Below are positions 3,098 to 60,553 of a stretch of 64,000 nt of DNA, one piece after another; position 1 is the stretch's first letter, and the number at the start of each line of letters is the position of its first letter. Source of the stretch: Octopus vulgaris (Eukaryota). The notes beneath the pieces are model-generated. The model saw only the letters and a program-made list of their open reading frames with translations, was not told where the DNA came from and ran no database searches. Location: NCBI GenBank assembly GCA_951406725.2, contig OX597824.1, forward strand, positions 98,146,001-98,210,000, given 5' to 3'. Position numbers and translations under genes: made by a program.

Positions 3098-3509
3098 TCT
3101 CTTTTACTCTTTTACTTGTTTCAGTCATTTGACTGCGGCCATGCTGGAGCACCACCTTTAGTCGAGCAAATCGACCCCGGGACTTATTCTTTGTAAGCCC
3201 AGTACTTATTCTATCAGTCCCTTTTGCCGAACCACTAAGTAACGGGGACGTAAACACACCGGCATCGGTTGTCAAGCAATGCTAGGGGGACAAACACAGA
3301 CACACACACACATATATATATACATATATATATATATACATATATACGACAGGCTTCTTTCAGTTTCTGTCTACCAAATCCACTCACAAGGCATTGGTCG
3401 GCCCGGGGCTATAGCAGATGACACTTGCCCAAAGTGCCATGCAGTGGGACTGAACCCGGAACCATGTGGTTGGTTAGCAAGCTACTTACCACACAGCCAC
3501 TCCTGCGCC
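3098..3509 (-). mobile_element. tRNA-derived SINE, family A, full length
   Basis: Reverse complement of 1981-2409 along its length, including head and tail. Confidence 0.9.
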
Positions 3510-3529
3510 TATAACTGAACTTTTTTTCT

Positions 3530-3745
3530 CTTTATCTTTACTAGTTTCAGTTATTGGAGTGCGGCCATGCTGGGGCACCGGCTTGAAGAGTTTTAATCGC
3601 ATGACTCGACCCCAGGACTATTTTTTTACTTTTTTAATCTTGGTATTTATTCTATCGGACACTTGTGTCGAACCGCTATATTACGGAGACGAAAACAAAC
3701 CACCATCGGTTGTCAAGCAATTGTAGGGGGATAAACACAAGCACA
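3530..3745 (-). mobile_element. SINE family A, diverged 3' half
   Basis: Contains GCGGCCATGCTGGGGCACC, CGAACCGCTA and CATCGGTTGTCAAGCAA blocks shared with the full copies. Confidence 0.75.
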
Positions 3746-3749
3746 AAGA

Positions 3750-4016
3750 CACACGCACACATACACAAACACACACACATACATACATTCATACACACAT
3801 ACATACATACATACATACATACACACATACATACATACATACATACATACATACATACACACATACAAACATTCATACATACATACATACATACATACAT
3901 ACATACATACATACATACATACATACGTACATACATTCATACATACATACATACACACATACACACACACATACACACATACACACACACATACACACAT
4001 ACACACACACATACAT
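3750..4016. repeat. (ACAT)n/(AC)n microsatellite
   Basis: Seen directly. Confidence 0.95.
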
Positions 4017-4084
4017 AAGGTAAACACTATAAACCAGACTAGTAACATCTCCACCAAAATGCTGACCGTTTCCCCTGTATGCGA

Positions 4085-5319: not shown

Positions 5320-5664
5320 TTGGGTCATCCCATAAATAATGCGATATTTTCATATAGACGTGACTGCAAAGAAGCACACACATTCGCTCTCTGCGCGCGA
5401 TTAGATACGGAGAATTTGTAAGGAACCCATTGACCCAATTTTCTGACTTTTCCTATGACACACAGATGTCAATTAATGGTTGGATGACCAAACCCAAGCT
5501 TCTCTGCTAATTCCTCAGCTGTTACGATGGGATTCTGTTCCCTAAGAACAAGGTAAAATTACTACCTGCTTTTATAGCAAGTTGTTGCAGGTAGTTTATT
5601 CCGTCCCCCTCTGACTTTTGGTTCATGCAATTGAAAAAGCCGCATCATTCACGGGATGAACCAA
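5320..5664. mobile_element. Tc1/mariner-type non-autonomous element (MITE-like)
   Basis: Imperfect ~24 bp TIRs: TTGGGTCATCCCATAAATAATGCG on the left and CGCATCATTCACGGGATGAACCAA on the right, followed by TA. Confidence 0.7.
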
Positions 5665-5667
5665 TAT

Positions 5668-5722
<55 letters not shown>

Positions 5723-6155
5723 GTTTCTGATTTAGGCACAACGCCAGCAATTTTAAGAAATCAACCCCAGTGCTTGACTTGTACAATAAAATAATGGTTT
5801 CTGATTTAGGCACAAGGCCAGCAATTTTAAGAATAATAATAATTCTTAAGTAACGAGTGGATGGATTTAGAAATTAATGTTTATTTCGTACAGCGATTAA
5901 TACCAAATCCATCTTTTCGTTACTTAAAATATTGTTATTATTGTCTCAACACTGCAGAGTTCCCGAAATAGATTCAACGAAAAAATACGCCGTCCGCAGA
6001 TGACACCAGGTAACCCGAAACTGTGTCAGGGCTTTACTCAACGCTTTTAAACTCACTAATATACATATACCCGTTAGTCCAGAATAGTAAACGTGTGTGT
6101 GTGTGTGTGTGTGTGACTAAACCCGGAACCAGACGGCTGGAAAGCAAGCTTCTTT

Positions 6156-6192
<37 letters not shown>

Positions 6193-6508
6193 TGTATGTA
6201 TGTATGTATGTATGTATGTATGTATGTATGCGTGTATGTATATTCAGGCAAATTTATACACACACACACACACACACGTACATACTCACACACACGTATA
6301 CATACATACATAACAAACAAGCATATATATATTCATGTGTATGTGTGTGTGTGTAAATAGGCGTGTCCGTGTGCGAGTGTAGCGTCAGCGCGTATGTGTC
6401 TGCCAATGTGCGCATACCTGTCTGTTTGTGTGCGTGTGTGTGCGTGTGTGTGCGTGTATGTGTGTGTCTGTGTGCGTGCGTGTGTGTGTGTGTATGTGTG
6501 TGTGCGTG

Positions 6509-6539
<31 letters not shown>

Positions 6540-6616
6540 TTCCAAATTTCTTTCATTTGCTTTATGCATATCTATGGTCATCACCGGAAGCTCAATTAAC
6601 AGAAATAGACTTGACC

Positions 6617-6652
<36 letters not shown>

Positions 6653-6827
6653 TCCAGATTACGAGACTCTCATGGTCTGTACAAGTCGTCACTGCCTATC
6701 GGAGTGTACAGCATTTGTAGGTGTCCAGACACTCACTGGACAATGGACAAACTGCAATATGTCCGGACTTCCCCGTAACAGAGAGCAACCTGGTTTTTCG
6801 GCTGAATGCAAACGGCAAAACTCCGAA

Positions 6828-20949: not shown

Positions 20950-22355
20950 GCTTGTGTCCTGAAGGTGTGTCGACACCAACTTGCATCTCCCCTTGCTAAT
21001 CTGTGGAGAAACTCACTGGATGCTGGCTATATTCCAAAAACCTTCTGTCCCAGTCTGTTGTCCCAGTTTTCAAGGAAACAAGTCCCTTGCAGTGAATTAC
21101 ATCTCACTCACCTCCTATCATCAAGGTATTTGAGAGGGTGGTGAGATCTCAAATAACAATTTCTGGAAAGCAACAGACGGCTGATCTCCAACCAACATGG
21201 GTTCCGTAATGGAAGGACTGCCTAACGCAGCTCCTGCATCACTTTGAGGACATTTTGAGAGCTTTGGAGAGGCTCCAACACCGATGTCATCTACCTTGAT
21301 TTCAGTAAGGCCTTCGACAGGGTCGATCATAAAGTTACTGAAATGGATTAAGTGTTTCCTGACAGACAGATCTCAACAGGTATTGAAGGGGTAAATCCCA
21401 GCCAAAGTCAGTAGTGGCGTTCCGCATGTGCGGCCCACTTCTTTTCATATATATGACATTAATGACATAAGCACAGCAACATAAAAATCTTTGCTGATGA
21501 CTCCAAGCTATCATAAATGAGGCGAGTATAGTCAGATATATCCAATGGGCAGAAAAAAACAATATGCTGCTGAACGAGGATAAATTTGAGCTAATCCACT
21601 TTGGAAAAGAGGATGCCTGAAACTCCATACTCCTTCCTTCAGGTGAAACTCTCGGCGTCCAACAACATCAGAGACTTGGGAGTAATTGTGGACAACAACG
21701 TAAGCTGGGCCACTCATATAAACACCAAAGTTGACATGGCCCGCAGAATGTGTTCCTGGATTCTCAGAACTTTCCAGTCAGAGATATCACACCATTATCC
21801 TTCTCTTCTCCACTTTGCCGACCCCACCTTGAATACTGTTGTCCACTGTGGTCTCCCCACACATACAAGGTATCAAAAAAGTCGAAGCACCTCACAATAC
21901 AAAATAGATGGCATACAGGCCTCGACTATTGGGTCGACTAGAAAAGCTAAACTCTATTCTCTCCAACGTCGTCGTGAGCGCTACATCATCTGCATGATGT
22001 GGAAAATATTCCATCAGCATTGCCCAAATGATGTTGGCATCACCTAAGGTACATCCAAGGCTTGGGCCCGTGCCATCATCCACTCTCATCTCATAACAAC
22101 AATACGGCACAATATTTCACCTCAATTGGCCCCGCTCTCTTAACATTACACCAAAACACATTAAAACAGAAACTGACCCTATAGGGTTCAAGAAGTCTTT
22201 GGACAGATATAAACCCTACACCCGGATATGTCTCTGTAAACAATAACTCTCTACTGAGTGGGCCATTCTGACGAAGACTTCACCAGGTGGTGCTATTAAG
22301 TTAGACATGGCCTGGGCCAATAATGGCAAACCTATCAAAGTATCAAAGTATCAAG
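20950..22355 (+). mobile_element. CR1/Jockey-group LINE copy, 5'-truncated and deletion-riddled
   Basis: Colinear with 27000-28395: DVIYLDFSKAFDRVDH, SLQRRRERYIICMMWK and the same 3' end GGTGGTGCTATTAAGTTAGACATGGCCTGGGCCAATA; (AAGTATC)n tail. Confidence 0.85.
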
Positions 22356-22393
<38 letters not shown>

Positions 22394-22503
22394 ACATATA
22401 TATATAATATATATATATATATACATATATATATACATATATATATATACATATACATATATATATATACATATATTATATATACATATAATACATACAT
22501 ACA

Positions 22504-22546
<43 letters not shown>

Positions 22547-22647
22547 TCCATTCTTCACCAAGTGCCACATATTAGAGGAGGCTTTTAGTAATAACAGTGT
22601 AGCACAAAACGGCGGTGCATCAGCATGGCCGCAGCTCTGAGCTGAAA

Positions 22648-22706
<59 letters not shown>

Positions 22707-22814
22707 CATGCATACATATATATATATATATATACATACATACATATATATATATACATACATACATACATATATATATATACATACATGCATATATATA
22801 TATATACATACATG

Positions 22815-22866
<52 letters not shown>

Positions 22867-23198
22867 CTTAGCAGATCTTACTGTTTGTTTTCACTGTCCT
22901 GTTTTTGTTACCAACTTTGACCCTCCGCAAATCCCAAAGGTTATTTAATTTGCTTTGCGGGAGCAACTGTTTTGACGAAGGCGCATCTTGTCGGAATTGC
23001 TCGAAATGCGGAGAAGATAAAACATCCGACAACTGATGAAGGGGCGTTCATTATGTTACTTGTCTTATTTTCCGTTTGTTTCTTTCGTGTTTTGTAAAAA
23101 AAAGTTCGTATTCCATGTTTTCGTATTTCATGTTGTTTACGTTCTATGTCGTCCTGTACCCATATATGCAAATGTATATACATATATGTATGTATATA

Positions 23199-23268
<70 letters not shown>

Positions 23269-23278
23269 TATATATATA

Positions 23279-23385
<107 letters not shown>

Positions 23386-23472
23386 TGCATATATATATAT
23401 ATGCATATACATATATATATGCATATATATATATACATATATATATATATATGCATATATATATATATATGC

Positions 23473-23542
<70 letters not shown>

Positions 23543-23545
<3 letters not shown>

Positions 23546-25128
23546 CTAGCGGGACCACTGAAGAAGCTCTTCAGTGGTTCCTTGGCTAACGGTAAACTGC
23601 CCAGGGCGCTAAAAGAAGGCACCATATGCCCTATCCACAAAGGAGGGAGTAGAGCAGAGGCCAAAAACTACAGGCCAGTCTCCCTGACGTCACACATAAG
23701 TAAGGTCATGGAACGAATCATCAGAAAAAACTGATCACGTTCCTCGAAGAAACTAACCGTCTCACTGACACACAGCATGGCTTTCGCCCAGGAAGAAGCT
23801 GCCTTACGCAGCTGTTACAACACTACGACTGGGTACTGAAACAACTACTGGATCGCTCACAGGTGGATGTGGTATATCTCGACTTTGCGAAGGCCTTTGA
23901 CAAAGTCGACCACGGAGTGATATGTCACAAATTACTCAGACTCGGCATAACAGGAAAAGTAGGTGAGTGGATACATGACTTCCTGAAGGACAGAAGCCAG
24001 ATGGTTGCAGCCAATGGAGCCCTCTCGGGAAAGACACCAATAGCAAGCGGGGTGCCACAGGGCACAGTCTTGGGACCCTTGCTGTTTTTGGTGGCGCTCT
24101 CTGACATGCCCTTGGTAGCACAAACAACATCCCTCACTAGCTATGCTGATGACACAAAGGTAGCACAGGCAATCAAAAACCCAGCTGATGCTGACCTTTT
24201 ACAACAAGATCTGGATGCCATATACAAATGGGCTGAAGACAACAACATGCAATTTAATGCTGGTAAATTTCAAGCCTTACAATATCAAGCTGTAAACACA
24301 TATACATTACAACACAACTATACTGGTCCAGGAGGGATCGAAATCCCAGTATCGAAATCAATACGGGACCTGGGGATAGACATGAGTGACGATGCATCTT
24401 TTTCTTCACACATCGCGAAGGTGGCGACAATGTGCAGACGACTCACTGGCTGGATCCTGAGGACATTCCGGACAAGAGACTGCGAGACCATGTTGACACT
24501 ATGGAGGACATTTGTCCTAAGCCGCCTGGACTACTGCTCCCAACTGTGGTCACCGCATAGTGTCAAACTAACCACAGAGCTTGAGACAATCCAAAGACAT
24601 TTCACCAAGAGGATTTCCACCATGAAAGAAAAGAACTATTGGGAGAGGCTTAGGGAACTCAATTTGTACTCCTTGGAACGAAGACGAGAGAGATATGCAG
24701 TGATATACATATGGAAAATCCTGGAGGGACTAGCACCAAATTTTGGAATTGAGAGCTGTTCCAATCCCCGTACAGGACGTCACTGTGTGGTGCCAAAGGT
24801 CCCGTCTTCCACATCCAGGGTAAGGAGCAGATACTGTAATAGCCTGGGGTTCAGGGGCCCTCAGCTTTTCAACAAACTGCCAAGAAAACTAAGAGATCTA
24901 CATGATGCGGATGTGGACATTTTCAAAAAACATCTAGACAAGCTGCTTTCCGGGATCCCAGATGAACCCACTGCAAGGTACGAAGGTAACCTAAGGGCAG
25001 CAGCTACAAACTCTCTCTTAGATCAGTGGCCAGCCACGGCAAACTGGACTTAGAGAGGGTAGCAACAAGGGCGGTGCCCCAGCATGGCCTCAGCCGGATG
25101 GCTGAAACAAGTAAAAGAGTAAAAGAGT
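23543..25128 (+). mobile_element. CR1/Jockey-group LINE, 5'-truncated, with an almost intact RT (ORF 23863-25053)
   Basis: [22 protein letters not shown], one frameshift near 23730, then QHGFR, YLDFAKAFDKVDH, SGVPQGTVLGPLLF, YADD and SLERRRERY. 3' tail ends (GTAAAAGA)2. Flanked by (TA)n on both sides. Confidence 0.92.
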
Positions 25129-25803
<675 letters not shown>

Positions 25804-26130
25804 CCATCAAGATGTAGGACAAGATTCTGTGATAGCCTGGGCTTCCGAGGCCCACAGCTCTTCAATATCCTCCCGAAGAACCTGAGAGACCTGCATGGGG
25901 TGGATACAGATGTCTTTAAAATGAAGCTGGATCTCTTCCTGTCAGGTGTCCCAGATGAACCAACTTCACGGCAGGAGGGGCAGATGAGGGCAGCTGCATC
26001 GAACTCTCTCATGCACCAAATAGCAGTTGCTAGAAAGCCTCCATGAAGTGAAACCAAGTAGCAACACCAAATGGCGGTGCCCCAGCATGGCCACAGCTCA
26101 TAAGCTGAAACTAGAATCAATCAATCAATC
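25804..26130 (+). mobile_element. Short 3' fragment of a related CR1/Jockey-group LINE subfamily
   Basis: [39 protein letters not shown], paralleling 24820-25010; tail GGCGGTGCCCAGCATGGCC..(AATC)n. Confidence 0.85.
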
Positions 26131-26454
<324 letters not shown>

Positions 26455-26457
<3 letters not shown>

Positions 26458-28394
26458 TTAATCATTCTTGATTCATATACTTCTTCTTGTCCCAACTGGT
26501 ACTCGAACCAACGAGATGTCACAAAAACGTCTTAGACTTAATTTTCAGCAATCTCTATCCACAATATTGCAGTGGAGAAAACCCTACTCTCCGACCATGA
26601 CATGTCGCTAGAGATTAAAAAATGCCTAAACTCCAAAACAACATGATGTCTATCATCAATCGTCAGCGAAGAGCTGAAGAGGCCTGGGTCATTGAGAAGA
26701 TCAAACTCAATCCCAAAGTGTTCTTTTCATTTGCAAAAAAACACAGAGTCACTGGTTCTACTGTTGGCCCTCTGATTGATGAAAATGGTACTCTTGAAGA
26801 CAATGCCAAAACTATGGGAGAGATATTGCAGAAACAATATTGCTCTGTTTTCAGCAATCCTGATATGAATGATCTGGGTTGTATCAGTGATGTTACTCCC
26901 CAATACACTTCATCGGACATAACCTTTGGCGCTCCTGATGTCTTAGCAGCAATAAAGGAAATGAAGTATAATTCAGCAGTAGGTCCCGATAGGTTCCCTG
27001 CTTGTGTCTTGAAGATGTATCAAAACCAGCTTGCACCCCCTCTAGCCAATCTGTGGCGGAACTCACTGGATGCTGGATATATACCAGAAGACCTTCTATT
27101 CCAGTCTGTTTTCCCAGTTTTCAAAAAGGAAACAAATCACTTGCCATGAATTACCGTCCAATCTCACTCACCTCTCATATTATTAAGGTATTTGAGAGAG
27201 TGCTGAGATCGCGTATGACTCACTTCCTTGAGAGTCATAATATGCTGAACTCCAACCAGCATGGATTCCGTAATGGAAGAGATTGCCTAATGCAGCTACT
27301 GCATCATTTTGATGACATTTTGAGAGCCTTGGGAGAGGGTTCCAACACTGATGTCATCTACCTTGATTTCAGCAAGGCCTTTGACAGGGTTGATCATAAG
27401 ATCCTTTTGAGAAAGCTGTCCAATATTGGTGTCACTGGAAAGCTGCTGCAGTGGATCAAGTGCTTCCTGTCTAACAGAACCCAACATGTTGTAGTCGAAG
27501 GAGTCAAATCCAGCCCAGCCAAAGTCAGCAGTGGTGTCCCACAAGGCACTGTGTTGGGCCCACTTCTCTTCATCATCTACATAAATGATATTACTGACAC
27601 CATCAAACACAGTAACATCAGAACCTTCGCTGATGATTCCAAGCTCCAGAAGGTCATCAATGGCGTGGATGACCGAATAAGCCTTCAGTCAGACCTACTG
27701 GCTGTTGTCCAATGGGCGGAAAAGAACAACATGTTGATAAACGAAGACAAACCTTCCAGTCGAGAGATTCCCACGCTATTATCCTTCTCTTCTCCACTTT
27801 TGCCCGACCCCACCTTGAATACTGCTGTCCACTGTGGTCTCCCTACACAAAACAAAATATTATGAGAATTGAAGCTCCCCAAAGGTCAGTCACAAAAAAG
27901 ATAGATGGCATGTCAGACCTTGACTACTGGGGTAGACTAGAGAAGCTGAAATTGTATTCACTCCAACGACGCCGTGAACGCTACATTATCTGTATGATGT
28001 GGAAAATATTCCATCAGCACTGTCCGAATGATGTTGGCATTACCTTCAAAATGCATCCAAGGCTTGGACCACGTGCCATCCGTCCACAACAAAAATCTAA
28101 ATCGCATCACATAACGACAATACGGCACAACTATTTACCTCAATTGGACCCGCTCTCTTCAACATTACACCAGGACACGTCAAAAAAGAAACTGACCACA
28201 CAAAATTCAAGAAGTCTTTGGACAAATTCCTTCAAACAGTACCGGACAAACCATCCACACCCGGATATGTCTCCGCAAACAATAACTCTCTGTTCGAATG
28301 GGCCTTGGTGCCCAAATCCTGAACTGAAAGACTTCGCCAGGTGGTGCTATTAAGTTAGACATGGCCTGGGCCAATACTATAAAACCTTTCTAAG

Positions 28395-30206: not shown

Positions 30207-30340
30207 TCAAATCAGTTTGGATCGGATTCCGAGCTGTCTCAAGTTTCAAAGCCCCTCCCGGAGCCCCTCCGTGAGGGGCTAGGCTCCGTGAGGGGCTTTG
30301 AAACTTGAGGCAGCTCGGAATCCGATCCAAACTGATTTGA
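30207..30340. repeat. Near-perfect long inverted repeat (foldback)
   Basis: ~59-bp arms TCAAATCAGTTTGGATCGGATTCCGAGCTG..AAAGCCCCTC.CGGAGCC with 2 mismatches and a ~16-nt loop. Confidence 0.9.
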
Positions 30341-31029: not shown

Positions 31030-31117
31030 CTTGATATCTTTCCAGCCTTATCAGTTAAGATCTAAAGAGGATGGCTCTTTTAGCTTTTTACATTTTAGTT
31101 TCTGTTTTTCGTTTTTT

Positions 31118-33455
31118 ACATGAAGGTTACAGAGAGGGTCATAAGCCAACTAATTAGAGAGAGAGTTAGTTTAGATGAGATGCAGTTTGGTTTCGTGCCA
31201 GGGAAAAGTACCACTGATGCTATATTCCTGGTAAGGCAGCTGCAGGAGAAATACCTAGCCAAAGATAAGGCCCTGTACCTGGCTTTTGTTGACATGGAGA
31301 AAGCCTTCGACAGGGTCCCCCGATCCCTCATATGGTGGTCAATGAGGAAACTAAGAATAGAAGAATGGTTAGTGAGAGCTGTGCAAGCCATGTACAGGGA
31401 CGCTGCTAGTAAGGTGAGGGTTGGAAATGAGTACAGTGAAGAATTCCGGGTAGAGGTAGGGGTCCACCAAGGCTCAGTCCTCAGCCCCCTCCTATTTATC
31501 ATAGTCCTCCAGGCAATAACGGAGGAATTCAAGACAGGATGCCCCTGGGAGCTCCTCTATGCTGATGACCTTGCTCTAATTGCTGAGTCATTATCAGAAC
31601 TGGAGAAGAAGTTTCAGGTGTGGAAGCATGGTTTAGAATCGAAGGGCCTTAGAGTCAACCTAGCTAAAACCAAAGTCGTAATAAGTAGGAAGGTAGACAA
31701 ATCACAAACGCCTTCAGGTAGATGGCCCTGCTCGATCTGTAGAAAAGGTGTAGGTAGAAACTCTATAAGATGCACCAAGTGTAAGCTATGGACACATAAG
31801 AGGTGCAGCAATGTCATAGGAAGGCTAACTAGGAAGATGGTTTTTGTATGTGGCAGATGCTCGGGAGCATTAACCTCTGAAAATCTGCAGAAAACAACTT
31901 CCGTCACTTTCCAGGGGGAAAAACTAGAAGTGGTTGATAGCTTCCGTTATCTTGGTGACCAAGTCAGTAGTGGGGGTGGGTGTGCTGAAAGTGTAACGGC
32001 TAGAGTAAGAATAGCCTGGGCAAAGTTTAGGGAGCTCTTACCTCTGTTGGTGACTAAAGGCCTCTCGCTCAGAGTAAAAGGCAGACTGTATGATGCATGT
32101 GTACGAACAGCTATGCTACATGGCAGTGAAACATGGGCCGTGACTGCTGAGGACATGCGTAAGCTCGCGAGAAATGAAGCTAGTATGCTCCGTTGGATGT
32201 GTAATGTCAGTGTTCATAGTCGACAGAGTGTAAGTACCTTGAGAGAAAAGTTGGACCTAAGAGGAATCAGATGTTGTGTGCAAGAGAGACGATTGCGCTG
32301 GTATGGTCATGTGGTGAGAATGGATGAAGATAGGTGTGTGAAAAAGTGCCACACCCTGGCAGTTGAGGGGACCTGTGGAAGAGGTAGACCCAGGAAAACC
32401 TGGGTCGAGGTGGTGAAGCACGACCTTCGAACTCTAGGTCTCACCAAGGAAATGACCAGAGACCGAGACCTATGGAAGTATGCTGTGCGTGAGAAGACCC
32501 GGCAAGACCAGTGAGAACAATCAAAATCAAATCATATATCAGAAAGCAGGGGTTAAGTGACCCATCTGTTCGTGTCCGCTGTCAGCCTCGTCTGGCACCC
32601 GTGCCGGTGATACGTAAAAGCACCATTCGCTCATGGCCGTTTGCCAGCTCTGCCTGGCCCCGTGTCGGTGGCACGTAAAAGCACCATCCGTTCGTGTTCG
32701 TTGCCAGCCTCGCCTGGCCCCGTGCCGGTGACACGTAAAAGCACCGTCCGTTCGTGGCCGTTGGCCAGCTCTGTCTGGCCCCGTGTCGGTGGCACGTAAA
32801 AGCACCATCCGTTCGTGGCCGTTGGCCAGCTCTGTCTGGCCCCGTGTCGGTGACACGTAAAAGCACCATCCGTCCGTGTCCGTTGCCAGCCTCGGCTGGC
32901 CCCCGTGCCGGTGAAACGTAAAAGCACCATCCGTTCGTGGCCGTTTGCCAGCTCTGTCTGGCCCCGTGTCGGTGGCACGTAAAAGCACCATCTGTCCGTG
33001 TCCGTTGCCAGCCTCAGCTGGCCCCCGTGCCGGTGACACGTAAAAGCACCGTCCGCTCGTGGTCGTTTGCCAGCTCTGTCTGGTGCCGGTGACACGTAAA
33101 AGCACCGTCCGTTCGTGGCCGGTTGCCAGCTCTGTCTGGCCCCGTGTCGGTGGCACGTAAAAGCACCGTCCGTTCGTGTCCGTTGCCAGCATCGCCTGGC
33201 CCCGTGCCGGTGACACGTAAAAGCACCATCCGTTCGTGGCCGTTCGCCAGCTCTGTCTGGCACCTGTGCAGGTGGCACGTAAAAAACACCCACTACACTC
33301 GCGGAGTGGTTGGCGTTAGGAAGGGCATCCAGCCGTAGAAACACTGCCAGATCTGACGAAGCCTTCCAGCTTCACAGACCCCAGTTGACCCGTCCAACCC
33401 ATGCTAGCATGGAAAACGGACGCTAAACGATGATGATGATGATGATGATGATGAC
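31118..33455 (+). mobile_element. RTE-clade LINE, 5'-truncated but young: uninterrupted RT ORF 31120-32514, 3' UTR with tandem array, (GAT)n tail
   Basis: QFGFVPGKSTTDAIF, FVDMEKAFDRVPR, GVHQGSVLSPLLF, LLYADDL, FRYLG, LHGSETW, RLRWYGHV and GRGRPRKTW; Cys/His finger insert; ends CATGCTAGCATGGAAAACGGACGCTAAAC(GAT)n. Confidence 0.93.
32562..33290 (+). repeat. Tandem array of 12 units of ~60-62 bp inside the RTE 3' UTR
   Basis: ACGTAAAAGCACC recurs near 32612, 32673, 32733, 32794, 32855, 32916, 32977, 33038, 33094, 33155, 33215 and (variant) 33277. Confidence 0.95.
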
Positions 33456-36400
33456 ATCTGTAAAAATGGTTTATTAATGAGCAATGTTGTTTATAATCTC
33501 CTCCCTGATAAGATTGATACATTATTCCACATTATTTTTCCATCACTCTTATATACATATATATATATATTTATATATATACATATATGTGTGTGTGTGT
33601 GTGTGTAAGAAATTAAAGAAGGAACTGCACACATTTTACATAGTTTTAATATATTTTACGATGTCCTCACTATTCTGCTCAAAAATTGCTCGCCCTCGTT
33701 GTTGTAGCGATTAAGTAAACATTGGCAAACCTCAAGACGTTTGCTTTTGTGCTCTGCAGTAAGCTCTCTTGGCAACTATCTTGCACAGACTTTATGGAAG
33801 CCGAGTTAGGCCTCCAACCAGGCTTTCACGATACTTTTAAAGCCAGGAAGTTTTCAGCACCCCCTTTATATATATACATATATACACTTACACACACACT
33901 ATATGTATGTATATTATAACTATCATAAACTTACCCACCTACCTTGTGCAGTCCTGTCCCTCTTCTCACTTATACCTATCCTTTTATACTTTGAGGGAAC
34001 ACCATGATATTTAGCACAAACCCACTTCCCAAATTAAGAAGGGATGTAAATTTTTGTACTTTATTGAAAAAGATGGGGTTTTTACAAAAGTATATAATAT
34101 AACTGCTCTTGTTACCTAGTGAGTCTATATAAATGAAGGCTTGTAGCTAGCCATTACACGTTTATTGCAATGGATATATCCCCTTTAAGAAGTGAAACCG
34201 GTTTGTAATAATGTACTTCAGAATATTTAATAGTGAATTTGTGTAATAAAATTATTTAAAATGTTTGAATCAGAAATTTTACTATAGAATATGCAATCTT
34301 GAAATGATCTGATTACAGTATTGTATTTTGGATAATATATATATATATATTGGAATATGTGATAATGTACTTTGAAAAAAATTGTGATAATCAGAATTAA
34401 CTGCAATATAAAAGGAATAATGCATATTTCAAAATTATTATCTTCCCTCTTGAGTGGAAGATATATACATATATATCAAAGGTTAGGTAGAGAAGGCTCT
34501 CATTATTTTTGACAAAGCCATGAGGAAGGCAGCTCTGCTGGAAGAAAGATTCTCTGACATAGGACTTGCAGTCAAAATAGTATCAGACATCTTATACTGC
34601 TTGTCACTGGAGCCTACTAAGCTGACCGAGAGAGTGGCAAAAGTGCTGGACAAGCATTGGTCACCTAAAACCCAATGACGTCCAAATGCCTCACTGTCAT
34701 TTCAGTTCTTGATCCATTTCATGTTTCATGAAGTCCTATGGCGATGGATGCACGGCATTGAAAGTCATATCCACACACACAAAATGATGAAAATAAATCA
34801 GATCAGGCTCAATGTGAGATGGCTATCATCTGACAAGATAAAGCAATCTTCATCATTATTATCATTTAACATCCGACTTCCTATATCTATATATTACCTG
34901 GTATTTTTCCTCATTTGTATCTCTTTGTATTCCTGTGTTGCTCTTTGTCAATGGGATGCTAAAAATAGCACACTGATGTGGGTATAAAACGAAAGGAAAC
35001 TAAAGATGATCTTGCAGGTCTTGGATCCTGAAGATGAGAAGGTACACAGCTATTGCTGGATCATATCACATGCAATAATGTGTTTAATATGTGAAACACT
35101 CAGCAATGATCAACTGATATTGGTGCACAGAAACGATTGTAGGGATTTGAAATGAAGCCTGTTCATTCCATCTTCTCACAATAAAATCCTTTTACATCCC
35201 ATGTAGAATTTCTTCAGCTGAACTCAAGAGTTTGTCTATATTTGTCTTTCCCTGCTGGCATCAGCTTCCCACATCCATTCCTGTCTAATCATCCGTTTTC
35301 ATCTGCTGCAGAGGCCAACACAAGAAAACTGTCCACTCTCAAGGCTTTGGTTGGCTTCTTGCGATAATAGAACACACTTGGCCAGTGTGTTACACGGTGC
35401 GACTAAACCAAATCTCATTTGTTTGGGAAGCAAAGTTCTTCACCACACAACCACACCCGCTTTGCAATGTCATCATCTTCCTTTTCTTATAAGACAATGG
35501 TGGGGGTGAGCCATTTGTGAAGTTGGCTGCTGTTTCTAGCAAGTCAAGTGATCACTTAAGAAACTTCTTTTAATAGTTCAACAGCAAGACGAAGTTTGGT
35601 GGAAGTGATGATGGTGATGGTGATGGTGATGACAGCAGAGTACTGATGGTGGTGGTGGTGGTGGGTGATGATGATGGCGGCGATGATGATATATACCTGC
35701 TCACTCCCGCACCAATTCATATTTAAAGCTGACAGAGAGAAATTATAAATTAATTAATTAATAAACAAAGAAACATTTCTAAATTTCAAATTTTGATTTA
35801 TTGAAGAAATAGGAAACACAATTGTTGATAAATTCCATAAAATATCACAAAAAATAAACAAAAATGTTTTTAAAAAATACCCACATCTACATGTGTTAGT
35901 GTGTGGTTGTGTGGAGATGGAGAAGGAGAGAGAGAAGGGTGGAGATGAGTGGATGAACAGACAGACACGTAAATAGGGTTAGGATTCAGGAATGTACATG
36001 GAAGAGAGAGACAGACAGAAGGATGGACAGAGAGGCAATGAGACAGTGAAATTAACAGGTAATTATGCAAATAAGCAATTAATGAGACGCATTAAAACTT
36101 TTTTGTAACTTGGTGGGGTAGTGGCTGTGATTTTCACAGGCCTCCTTGTCCAGTGAGTTTGATGCCATTAAGGAATGTTTATAAGTCAACATCTGTGGGA
36201 AAGATATGAGCAAGGAGCATGTCTCAAAAGGCAGACATTTTGGGAAGGAAACACTAGGAATAGTGGTTAGCATGAAGCGTAGAGTATGCAGACATGACAC
36301 AATGATGAGAAGAGGAAACACTGAAGAGATGTGGCACAAGCCAAGCCATCTCTTAGAAACAGACATCAGATGGATGGATGAATAGACAGAAAGAAGAATA

Positions 36401-52400: not shown

Positions 52401-55248
52401 TATCACAACAGTAGCCTCAGCAAGGGTACCACAACAGCAACACTTAATAAAGGACCACAAATGCCACTTACTCGGTGTATGATGTCCAAGAGGTTTTGGT
52501 AAGTCTTCTCCGTTTCAAAGATTTCTTTGATGATTTTCCGGCGCCGTTTCTCTCGTTTCGCTTCATTGAATGCTGCTATTTTGGAACGCTCTTCCGGAGA
52601 TCTGTACTCAGCCTTTTCTTCTTGTGCAATCTCGTTTAATACTGAAGAAACAACAACAACCGCAACAAGAACCATATTAATTTGGAATGTGAGTGGAAGG
52701 CCAGACATTTGTGAGGAATGCATATAGTTGAGACCAACCCCAGTAGATGACAGGTACATTATTTTTAAACCTCAGGAGCAGGAAAGGCAAACTTGTCCAT
52801 GATGAGATTTGAACCCAGGACATAAATGGCCACAAGTGAATACTGCCAAACACTATGAATGATGTTCTACTGATTTTTTACAATCCCCCCACCTCAACTT
52901 AATAATGGTTTCTAATTTTGGCACAAGGCCAGCAATTTTTAGAGGTATGGGTTTAGTTAATTACATCAATCCCCAGTGCTCAAGTGGTCCCTTATTCTAT
53001 TGACCCCAAAAGGCAAAAAGCAACTTCCATGAAATTCAAACCCAGGACATAAAGAGCTGGAAGAAATTACCTCCAAGATGACACATTAACAATTCCGTCC
53101 AACAGGTTAACAATTCTATCTGACAGGTACAGTTCTGCCTTCTTACCAACTTTTTCCTCACTTTTAGCACAAGACCAGCAATCCTGAGAAGATGGGACAA
53201 GTGCATCAACCCCCAATATGTGACTGGTATTTCATTTTATCACTCTAACGATTATAGAAATAATAATCCTTTTTGTTATGGGTACAAGGTCTGGAATTTG
53301 GTGAGAGGGGCCAGTCAATTACTATGAACCCAATACTCAACTGCTCCTTATTTTATCAACCCAAAAAAGATAAACTCAGAATGTAAACAGTCATAATTAA
53401 TCACCACCAGACAAAATGTCTGATGCTCTACCAACTCAATAGCCTAAGGTCTACAAACAAAAAAAAAGAGAAAAAGACCCCATAAATTTCGAAAATTATC
53501 CAAACAAAGCAACCATATTTATTTGGTAGAGCAATGGAAGTAGGTTTTGGTTGTTTGTTTTTGGTCACAACCAAGAATTTCATCCATTTGAAGATATAAG
53601 CCTTTTTAATAACAACAAGTACGATACAATGGTTGCGTTTCAAAATGACTGAAAGACTTGTTTACCTTGGATTCTACTCCTTAAGGACATCATGATGACG
53701 GTCAGAGAATCTGAACAACCTGTGGAGAAAGAACATGGCAGGATGGAGAAATGGATGGAATATTTTATAGAATGATGAAGGAGCTCAGATTGGTGAGAAC
53801 CATCTGTTACCTGGAATAATAGAAAACATTACAGAATGGCTGAGAAATGGTAAAAGAATATTGAACAAGCTCATAGAATGATCACATGATAAAACAGATG
53901 GAAGACATCAGAGAATGAAGAAATATTGTACCAAAAAAGTAAAAGACATCAAAGAAAAGTCAAAGCAGAAAGACAGAGAAGCCCTGATGAGGAACAAACC
54001 TGTTATTTCCAAGAAATCCAATGACATAGTCTTCAGAGAAACAAAAGTAACAATAAAAATGATTCCAAGCTTGTTACAGATTTGCAATGGGAGGATATAG
54101 TCTCTATTCTGTCACACATACCCTCAGTACATAACTGGTACAGAAAGATTTCATTAGTTGACTGATAGAATTGGTCCTAAGAATGCGAGAGGATACAATT
54201 AAATAGGGAATGGCCATATTATTTGCCACAGTGTGGCACTTTGGGCAAGAATCCTCTACTATAGCCTCAGACTAACCAAATCTCTTGAGAGTAGATTTCA
54301 TCATTGTTTAACGTCCGCTTTCCATGCTAGCATGGGTTGGACGATTTGACTGAGGACTGGCAAACCAGATGGCTGCACCAGGCTCCAATCTGATCTGGCA
54401 GAGTTTCTACAGCTGAATGCCCTTCCTAACGCCAACCAGTCCAAGAGTGTAGTGGGTGCTTTTACATGCCACTGGCATGAGGGCCAGTCAGGCGGTACTG
54501 GCAACAGCCACGCTCAAGTGGTGTTTTTTACGTGCCACCTGCATAGGAGCCAATCCAGTGACACTGGCAACGACCTCGCTCGAATGTTTTTCACATGCCA
54601 GTAAGGCGACGCTGGTAACGATCATGTTGGAATGGTGCTTTTTACGTACCACCAGCACAGAAGCCAGTCAGATGCTCTGGCAACGATCAATCACACTCAG
54701 ATGGTGCTCTTAGTGCTCCACTGGACAGATTTGGTTGGTGAAGACTAAAAGAAGCCTGCTGAATATATATGTATGTGCGTGTGTCTGTGTTTGTCCTCCA
54801 CCACTGGACAACCAGTGCGGGTTTGTTTACATCCCTGTAACTTAGCAGTTCGGTAATAGAAACTGATAGAATAAGTACCAGGCTTGAAAAGAAATAAGTC
54901 CTGGAGTCGATTCCTTTGACCATCACCTTCTTCAGGGAAGTGTTGCCCCAGCATGGCCACAGTCTGATGACTGAAACAAATAGAAGATAACAGATAAAAA
55001 GACATTTGCAGTAGAACTAATCGATGGTGCCCTCAGCCAGGTTTTCTTGGCTTTCTGTGCCTCTGTTTGATATCATTGACCAGAGAAAACAAATATTATC
55101 CTACAGGAGAATCAACAAAACACACCAACTGTCACAGGATGGTAGGCATTATATACTAATGCTCCCCAACTTGCGGTCCATGGACCCCTGGTGGTCTACA
55201 AAGGTAGTAGTACTGGGGAGGGGGTCCATGAACTAAATTCAAAATTTC

Positions 55249-56500: not shown

Positions 56501-58366
56501 TATTGTGTGTATCTTGTGTGTGTGTATATATTGTGTGTGTGTGTCTTGTGTAATCAATGAAAGAAAGTAACTTGAGAGCTTTTATAAAAGTCAGGCTAAT
56601 CAGGAGATTAACGAAACATCCCTCATTTCTATCCAGAAATACCTTTTCCCGCTTCATACACCGACCTTATATTTCTTATATCAGTGTCAGACATTCAACC
56701 ACGGCCAGGCTGGAGCCACGACAGTCGCTTTTTCCTCTTTCTTTTTAGGTGTGACCCCGTGCAATGTCCTGGCATTTAAATTTGCTGACCTCAAAAGAAA
56801 AACAGCAGGATTTAAACGGATTTAAAACATTCACACATAAACCTATTATATATATATACATACGGATCGCCACATATAAATAAATATAGAAAGACATAAA
56901 TACACACAAGAGACATCAATTAATTAATAAACGAAATCCTCCTTAATTACCTCATTCGCTTTTCAGTTGTTGTTGTTTGAATTTCGTGCCACAACGTTCA
57001 GCACTGAAGACTGATCTCTCTTCTCATTGGTCCATATTTCTACCGCCTCACTCTCTACTTCCTCTCTTTATTTCTCCCTTTTCTCTCTCTATCTTTCTCT
57101 TTATTTGCACGCTCTCTCTCTCTCTCTTTATAGTTTATCTTGCTTTTCTACTAATTTGTTTCTCTCTTTCTTCTTACCCTCTCAATGTATTCTCTCACTC
57201 TTTTCTCCCATTCTCTTCCTTTTCTCTCTTTCTTTTTACTCTCTCTCTCTCATCCCGTGCAAAATTATTGTCACTCTTTTCCCTAATTTAATTTTATCTT
57301 TACTCAAAATATTTCCAGTTAGCTTTTTGCTTTTTAATGTTCCTTGTGCACATAATATATACACAAATACAAACCTGTATACGTTTATATGGATATTAAA
57401 GCTGAAAAGTCTCTATTTAGAAACAGTAACAACTTATAAAGAATAAGAGGAAAATAGGTAAGAAATAAGAAAAGAAAATAATAAAAATTTATAGGAAATA
57501 ATAAGAAATACATATAACTTACTTTTAAAGAGAAAGGGTATTAAAATTTGAGGTTGGGAAGAGATAAAGGTAACCCGAAAAGCGGAGGTATGGGCGTAGC
57601 GAGGGCAGTTGGAGGTATTCAGACCGAAGAGATTTCAGAAGTGGTAATGTTACAGGTGCTGTTATATATATATGATTGGCAATCTTTCGTCTCGGGCAAC
57701 TAGAGACGAAAGATCGCCATATGATTTTATAGTTTCTATGGGGTATATAATTAGGAGACTTACTTACATAAAAGCCATTACATCATCATCATCGTTTAAC
57801 GTCCGCTTTCCATGCTAGCATGGGTTGGACGGTTTGACTGAGGACTGGCGAGCCAGAAGGCTGCACCAGGCTCCAATCTGATCTGGCAAAGTTTCTACAG
57901 CTGGATGCCCTTCCTAACGCCAACCACTCCGAGAGTGTAGTGGGTGCTTTTACAAGCCACCGGCATGATGGCCAGTCAGGCAGTACTGGCAACGGCCACG
58001 CCCTAATGGTGTTTTTTACGTGCCACCTGCACAGGGGCCAGTGCAGCGGCACTGACAATGACCTCGCTCGAATGTTGCTTTTCACGTGCCACCGGCACAA
58101 GTGCCAGTATGGCGATGCTGGTAACGATCACAGTCAAATGGTGCTTTTTACGTGCCACCGGCATGGGAGCCAGTCAGCAACCCTGGCAACAATCACGCTC
58201 GGAGGGTGCTCTTAGCGCCCCACAAGCATGGATGCCAGTCATGTGGTGCTGTCATCGAATTTGATTTCGATTTCACTTGCCTCAACAGGTCTTTCCAATG
58301 AAGGAAAGGTACGCATTTTCTTTATTATTATTATTATTATTATTACTATCACTATTATTATCATTC

Positions 58367-59508: not shown

Positions 59509-59560
<52 letters not shown>

Positions 59561-60553
59561 TTGAATGGTTCGACTGAGGTCTGGGAAGCCAGGAGGCAGC
59601 ACCAGGCTCCAGTCTGATCTGGTAGTGTTTCTACAGCTGGATGCCCTTCTTAACGCCAACCACTCTGAGAGTGTAGTGGGTGCTTTTTACGTGCCAGGGG
59701 AGGCTGGCAACGGCCACGGTCAGTTGGTGCTTTTTACGTGCCACCAAAGGTGGTACGTGGTTGGTGACAATGGAAATGGTTAAGATAGGAAATTTTCAAG
59801 AAGGAACAAGCTTTATGAACCAACTCAGTCAAGTGCAATATTATTAAGACAGTTGTATCATCTGAGACAGTTGCACATATAATTAGTGGATGCTCAAAAA
59901 AGGCCCCAAAAGAAGTACAAAAAAATGCAACAACAAAGTAGCAGTGTGAGTGTGAATACACTGGGAGTTGTGCAAGAAGTATGGGCTAGAATGTTCTAAC
60001 AAGTGGTTTGAGCACCAACCTTTAGCAGTAGCTGAAAGTGATTAGGTGAGGAGTCTTACATGGGATGCGCCAATGTACACAGACAAAAAGCTGCAACATA
60101 ACCAACCGGATATCACTCTTCTACAGGAGTATAAAGAATGGACCTTCACCAATGTAGCTCTACTTGCAGACCAGCATATTGTGAAGAGAGAGGATGAGAA
60201 AGTTGGGAAGCACCAAGACCTAGCATTGGAAGTGAAACCCATCCATAGAGCCTCAGAAGTGAGTGTGGTACCGATTGTGATTGGGGCACTTGGGACCATC
60301 TCAAAGAAAGCAATATTGTGACATCAAAAGCTGAAAATACCAAACTTCATAACAAGTAATAATCAGTTGGTAGCAACACTTGGCACAGCTCGTGTTTTGG
60401 GGAAAGTGTTCTGTCTCTAAGCTGCAGGATGGAGCAGAGATGAGATATGGATAAATCAGGGAAAGAAAAAAATCGTCGTCGTCGTTTTCTTTTACTACTT
60501 AATGTCCATTTTCCATGTTGGTATGGGTTGGATAGGTATCAGTAATAATAATG

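Follow-up and report, generated by a model that had tools for sequence, protein, structure and literature searches.

The window is a 64,000-nt stretch of the Octopus vulgaris genome, and the array described here lies on its plus strand at the 3' end of a retrotransposon copy. The RT frame occupies 31099-32514 (471 aa) and gives an RVT_1 match and a weak PHD match. The domain matches and a 99% identity to other copies from 31120 onward identify 31120-32514 as the 3' part (RT, PHD-like finger and C-terminus) of the single ORF of a 5'-truncated copy of a young RTE-type LINE. Across the ORF, its identity to other copies is 98-99.7%. Full copies show one frame of 1040-1047 aa with endonuclease (PF03372) and RT (PF00078) domains, the 1047-aa frames being present in three of the 18 extended loci with a located ORF end. 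The closest named protein is an RT of Octopus bimaculoides (84%), and a 33-nt tail pattern has 1329 exact matches in the genome. Judged by its sequence, the host element is a young RTE-type LINE with a single endonuclease-RT ORF, and it shows the RTE-type traits of a short simple-repeat (GAT)n tail and 5' truncation. The RTE-clade label is one that we assume from the architecture; the RT tree is made up of unnamed relatives only. The PHD-like finger (31720-31860, plus strand) is inserted behind the RT domain and is common to many of the 120 relatives listed.

A subfamily-specific spacer (32515-32558), delimited by comparison of subfamilies, leads from the stop codon to the tandem array (32559-33290), which is located between the stop of the RT frame (32514) and the (GAT)n run at 33429-33454. 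TRF reports a repeat at 32562-33284 with a period of 61, 11.9 copies, 84% matches and a score of 952, and splitting divides the array into 12 units of 56-66 nt each, confirming the 12 hairpin-plus-core units that an earlier note had read from the letters of the window. Each unit of ~61 nt consists of a linker, a GCCAG/CTGGC hairpin and a predicted pseudoknot core. The hairpin in the form GCCAG-N6-CTGGC is exact in 10 of the 12 units, and the core as first worded in 8. Variants A and B mostly alternate, as the earlier note had observed: among 50 distinct copies, which are mutually non-independent, 320 of 361 adjacent pairs alternate, and B followed by B is scarce (8 of 361). Most copies displayed keep their first and last units constant and vary in between. 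At the fifth position of stem 1, variant A pairs U.G and variant B has a C x A mismatch; the five-pair stem 1 first proposed therefore applies to A, while in B the stem has four pairs. The paired segments had been called the best-kept parts, and pairwise identity over 17 representative units, with two of the 17 hairpins mis-parsed by the script, agrees with this: 85-100% for the hairpin stems and 94-97% for stem 2, against 36-40% for the hairpin loops and 44% for the 5' linker. Hairpin loops vary in sequence and in length (6-11 nt) while their stems hold. The first three bases of loop 3 are as conserved as the stems, with 96% identity over the 17 units.

The terminal core (33265-33290) has stem 1, a 1-nt loop, stem 2 (GGTG/CACC) and an A-rich loop 3, and its position relative to the downstream module matches that of the lone core which three relatives described below (L232, L234 and L235) carry in their 5' UTRs. 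A short hairpin, assigned by reading, lies between the last unit and the module (33296-33308); a differently lettered hairpin stands at this place in the same three relatives. The GGAAGGGCATCC module follows at 33309-33348. It is composed of a covarying stem, an internal loop and a stem, with a second predicted pseudoknot in which the loop would pair with a TGCC 14 nt downstream, and is located in the 5' UTR in non-octopus relatives. A 3'-terminal stem-loop (33391-33422; z = -2.6 for the fold of 33340-33440) and the (GAT)n tail (33429-33454, by TRF) complete the element, all on the plus strand. Three other copies lie on the minus strand of the window and are those in which about five or about two diverged units had been noticed earlier: the 3' UTR of the older subfamily S5 (57790-58290) with five diverged units of ~65 nt (57940-58230), module and tail; a 5'-truncated S5 copy (54330-54720) with units at 54456-54720, one of them partly deleted; and a truncated copy with two units and the module (59560-59745), its units at 59680-59745, the second without its 5' half.

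The array is tied to the ORF end throughout the family, as the note had supposed. All 30 copies picked by protein alone carry units (4-20), 28 of them with the downstream module. Thirty copies picked with the array in the query have 11-25 units and the 23 tail-selected copies reaching the spacer or the ORF have 5-15; the variable unit number first suspected is thus real, with 4-25 among copies. Among 93 distinct tail-selected copies (100 minus six duplicates and one gap), 70 end within the UTR at their 5' side. In 33 of these 70 truncated young copies (L410-L509) an (AT)n run is found directly at the 5' junction, which may reflect a target preference or added bases. Three more young subfamilies, with 88-92% protein identity, have their own position-specific units and keep the core. 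Subfamily S5 (ORF at ~80% protein identity) has five units, the older subfamily S3 (59%) has three, and the oldest subfamily (~55%) repeats the bare 26-nt core from two to many times. All octopus subfamilies end with hairpin, GGAAGGGCATCC module, stem-loop and (GAT)n. In a random sample of 400 kb, 16 copies of the module were counted, corresponding to ~100,000 copies if scaled. The module is also shared, together with the tail, by a SINE-like family (L365-L389) with a tRNA-like head (located in 8 of 22 copies) and a (TG)n middle. The unit core was looked for in all 22 copies of this SINE and found in none, so mobilisation in trans does not require the unit. In subfamily C (L393-L399, L404, L405 and L407) a block of ~160-190 nt, containing a unit without stem 1, is triplicated.

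H-type pseudoknots of the luteovirus type have a stem 1 of 4-5 pairs, a loop 1 of 1-2 nt, a stem 2 of 3-5 pairs and an A-rich loop 3 of 6-8 nt. The octopus unit is alike in this geometry, which is a matter of shared fold type only; it differs in standing behind a stop codon, with no in-frame slippery site and no Rfam match. In stem 1, 89% of cells are paired and nine double changes are distributed over three of the five pairs, a score reached by none of 500 shuffles, with slid controls at no more than 69%; this covariation is inflated by relatedness and CpG decay, the changes of pair 1 being CpG transitions and possibly mutational. The U-A to A-U change of pair 3 comes from two outgroup rows. 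Stem 2 is 95% paired and has no double-sided change in 15 aligned units; its changes are G-C to G.U, and two rows break the pairing. A double-sided change in stem 2 occurs only in the distant relative L235, provided that L235 is homologous. Among 23 octopus unit types, stem 2 is broken or shortened in four and stem 1 is broken in a fifth; the broken core is found in 5 of 17 inner types and 0 of 6 terminal types, a non-significant difference (p = 0.27). The oldest subfamily has a C next to GGTG that could extend stem 2, and the former partner of this base varies freely (C in 63 and A in 53 of 122), as the pseudoknot model predicts. Of the H-type pseudoknot proposed in the note, the covariation of stem 1 and the recurrence of a plausible geometry in distant relatives are supported; stem 2, with no double change in the 15 units, is the weak part. 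We consider the modelled pseudoknot rather likely in an isolated or terminal unit. The terminal segment with the module is 98.6% paired and shows a double change in 5 of 11 pairs (17 rows). Every pair of the module forms in the 17 rows, with double changes, and RNAalifold recovers the module fold unaided, so the module is better supported than the unit core. According to a script and our reading of its output, 6 of 12 rows offer the module loop a possible partner 12-14 nt downstream.

Outside octopus, 79 metagenome loci with related RTs (38-67% RT identity) were collected, 38 of which reach the C-terminus. The array was sought at these 38 loci and found at none; most of the simple-repeat tails of the related loci begin within ~100 nt of the ORF end. 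Instead, 8 of 17 related loci examined have the module on the upstream side of the endonuclease motif, the motif search having located no endonuclease start in the remaining nine. In L232 and L234, an octopus-type core, with stem 1 changed on both sides, stands 43-45 nt before the module (~47 in the window) and is followed by the hairpin. L235 has a core with different letters in both stems, GGAC/GTCC plus GGACA/TGTCT, the homology of which is judged from position and geometry only. The order of terminal core, hairpin and module is equal in the 5' UTRs of all three. The RT tree gives a supported grouping with the octopus RTs for L232 (96/93) and none for L234 or L235. A strict pseudoknot descriptor, composed after L232 was seen, matches 3 of 10 windows of 90 nt that precede the module, against 7 matches among 1000 shuffles and none among 180 ORF windows. 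A looser descriptor matched 5 of the 10, and the strict count alone is used here, L221 and L273 probably representing another fold. A second pseudoknot-capable element is seen ~60 nt before the module in L221, L226, L228, L273 and L298, with loop TGCCTT/TGCCT facing AAGGC/AGGC; it sits where L232 has the octopus-type core, and its first stem varies among loci. The octopus 5' regions examined, which stop short of the outermost 5' ends, are tandem monomers with neither module nor core. In the young element these monomers are 670-850 nt long and carry a TATA-like motif (L064 at 5500-6800 on the minus strand, L069 at 3418-4040, and L305-L334), and contig C45 holds many of them in tandem. Five apparent 5' module matches near octopus ORFs were rejected, all being 3' ends of neighbouring copies.

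The octopus 3' UTR has the bipartite RTE trait of a segment homologous to an RTE 5' UTR joined to an RTE 3' tail. The other trait of bipartite elements, a non-autonomous element with its ORF deleted, is not found, as intact ORFs precede the segment. Probably, a former 5' segment has been placed before the 3' tail to make up this 3' UTR, and one of its units has been multiplied. The earlier note placed the array in the 3' UTR of an RTE LINE. It was right about the tie to ORF ends but missed the probable 5' UTR origin of both unit and module. The core pattern has eight matches in seven loci of viral contigs, with no evident stem 1 by eye, which are taken as chance. The module pattern has one viral match and seven in prokaryote bins, three chance-like in coding DNA and five resembling contamination by animal-type repeats; only L298 of the latter was used. 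L298 and L300-L303 are animal-type RTE or SINE sequence in contigs filed as prokaryotic, probably through contamination.

We suggest the following route. Through a template switch or an adjacent insertion, a bipartite 5'+3' derivative or a SINE tail would have come to lie behind the ORF and would have become the priming end. The terminal unit and the module would have stayed under selection for a role independent of position; such a role speaks for RNA stability or the binding of protein, and less for translation start. Extra units would have arisen repeatedly by slippage or unequal exchange under relaxed selection. By analogy, the terminal unit, module and stem-loop form a putative site of docking or RNP assembly for the element's own protein, an assignment we make tentatively. 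The closest parallel is the A-clade R2 3' UTR, in which a pseudoknot-hinge-stem is bound by the element's own protein and compensatory rescue is reported in the part of the paper available (PMC12180492); in R2Bm, control of the protein by a segment of 5' RNA is likewise reported (PMC2346776). R2 has, and the octopus element is predicted to have, a pseudoknot with a 3' stem behind it where the RNA of a non-LTR retrotransposon ends. R2, however, belongs to another clade with another endonuclease type, its structure is single copy and its binding is demonstrated, whereas binding in octopus is only inferred. As a whole, we give roughly even weight to the model of a VNTR in an RTE-type LINE 3' UTR, with the unit derived from an ancestral 5' UTR, a pseudoknot fold and likely protein docking.

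The alternative that survives best, though we judge it unlikely, is that of a vestigial or sequence-level element within a neutral minisatellite. Here, the captured 5' segment would persist as a primary motif (a protein site in RNA or DNA) or through recent ancestry, and no pseudoknot would matter. It is favored by the octopus hairpin stems and stem 2, which are near-invariant without covariation, and by the SINE without the unit. It is also favored by 4 of 50 copies that hold private variants in duplicate, one such variant breaking stem 2, and by an old copy of the oldest subfamily (L176, G000 C23, 43.60 Mb), in which the 26-nt core has grown into a minisatellite of at least 2 kb. Yet the 6-11-nt loops vary while the stems hold, stem 1 and the module covary across lineages, and the core is kept in elements just 55% alike in protein. 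The duplicated private variants and the old copy turned minisatellite do suggest that unit number is mostly neutral. Inserted copies go on gaining or losing units, and how many they have (4-25) is likely mostly drift.

A further alternative, which we regard as improbable, is that neighbouring units fold together into a chain of inter-unit A:B helices that compacts or protects the RNA of the young subfamily, with the alternation itself selected. The cores of A and B are distinguished only by the two partners of one pair, giving an almost perfect A:B helix of 14 pairs. Duplex energies are -24.1 kcal/mol for A:B, -20.8 for A:A and -11.9 for B:B, with local stem-1 hairpins at only -4.3 and -2.4. 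Neighbour-pair probabilities reach 0.83, nested models place most of the array in pairs between neighbours, and the scarcity of BB fits the same picture. In nested models single units also gain nothing over shuffles (z = 0.86 and -0.31), a point against the pseudoknot reading. However, the folding program cannot score pseudoknots, and the transitions between variants are inherited from few master elements. Other subfamilies show all four letter combinations, so that one anti-phase pair can be chance, and duplication of AB dimers maintains alternation without selection. Multimerisation as a function in itself, as the note had proposed, is conceivable but lacks support, with private mutations duplicated in single copies and, in nested models, pairing between neighbours that is stronger than folding within the unit. 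In its most specific form, a 5' element for RNA recognition that changed sides of the ORF and was multiplied, the resulting multivalent array of pseudoknots loading several protein copies, it is a doubtful candidate. If true, every short truncated copy would keep both 5'-type and 3'-type signals as a ready-made SINE, and the promoter-monomer 5' end would be freed to evolve, which would help explain the very large copy number of the lineage.

HDV-like ribozymes in RTEs are reportedly the subject of Ruminski 2011. Nuclease resistance or processing, another function suggested in the note, would make each unit an Xrn1 block or a self-cleaving ribozyme yielding short 3' RNAs; the compact pseudoknot geometry, the HDV-like ribozymes reported for RTE elements in the part of PMC6765202 covered, and the 70 of 93 copies that stop inside the UTR would fit, but the reading is very improbable, as the truncation points of 53 copies are spread evenly along the unit (p = 0.45 by chi-square, p = 0.64 for the best 5-nt window), the proposed Rfam search gave no family match in 32400-33500 (best E 0.32) nor in 20 full-length loci, and by reasoning cleavage here would part the ORF from its priming tail. 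Genomic 5' junctions mirror reverse transcription and RNA ends only indirectly. Our own HDV descriptor, run without a positive control, had no matches anywhere.

Relocation of a 5' UTR segment, the reading preferred here, has its nearest precedent in the bipartite RTE 5'+3' elements and SINEs (Bov-A, Ceph-SINE and others) of Kojima 2018, which join an internal 5' UTR segment to an RTE 3' tail (PMC5786205, in the part consulted). The same source, which in that part presents no structure, describes a conserved mid-5'-UTR domain, doubled in some RTEs, with a suspected function. The octopus array resembles bipartite SINEs in joining an RTE 5' UTR segment to an RTE 3' tail; it differs in that, in all the subfamilies examined, the joined segment serves as 3' UTR of an autonomous element with its ORF intact, and in that one part is multiplied in tandem. 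The module core motif has no match in a text search of the PMC5786205 supplement, and the module is not the domain aligned there as far as that is shown. A short CGTG...GCACGTTAAA stem with an A-rich run occurs in HaSE1 and gastropod SINEs, in the Nin/Inv SINE body domain (PMC5786205 and PMC4758252, supplement parts consulted); this domain and the octopus unit have only ~10 letters in common. RTE-2_OV of Octopus vulgaris is described, in the accessible part of PMC9115989, as a single-ORF RTE of 1109 aa with a C2H2 finger and a ~600-nt repetitive 3' UTR called microsatellite. It is alike in being a single-ORF octopus RTE with a repetitive 3' UTR; identity was rejected, as none of the three published primer sites is present in the window or in 30 loci, the final 1.8 kb of the ORF being covered. 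The literature searched contains no account of the array or of its fold, with Repbase, subscription papers on octopus and Ceph SINEs, and some supplements (PMC9115989, file 1 of PMC4758252) outside its scope. Bipartite RTE pieces, 3' UTR pseudoknots and tandem repeats in mobile elements are known themes; a joined piece of this kind in an autonomous element is not reported in the literature searched, and the probable relocation and the two predicted folds are what this case adds.

The array bears on RTE protein-RNA recognition and on the RTE 5' UTR pieces kept in many SINEs, for which PMC5786205, in the part consulted, only suspects a function. The octopus lineage would provide a natural transplant, with a 5' segment under apparent structural selection at the 3' end. 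It offers two short candidate folds (26 nt and ~40 nt) with natural compensatory variants in an element with intact ORFs, and the module makes up a large part of the repeats and probably of the transcripts as well. Should drift alone account for the array, a modest note on the evolution of retrotransposon UTRs would be left. Elsewhere in the window, a long inverted repeat with arms of ~60 nt, recognized by eye, is located at 30207-30340, and a different RT-encoding LINE family is represented at 21595-27865 on the plus strand by several fragments, which (AT)n runs interrupt.
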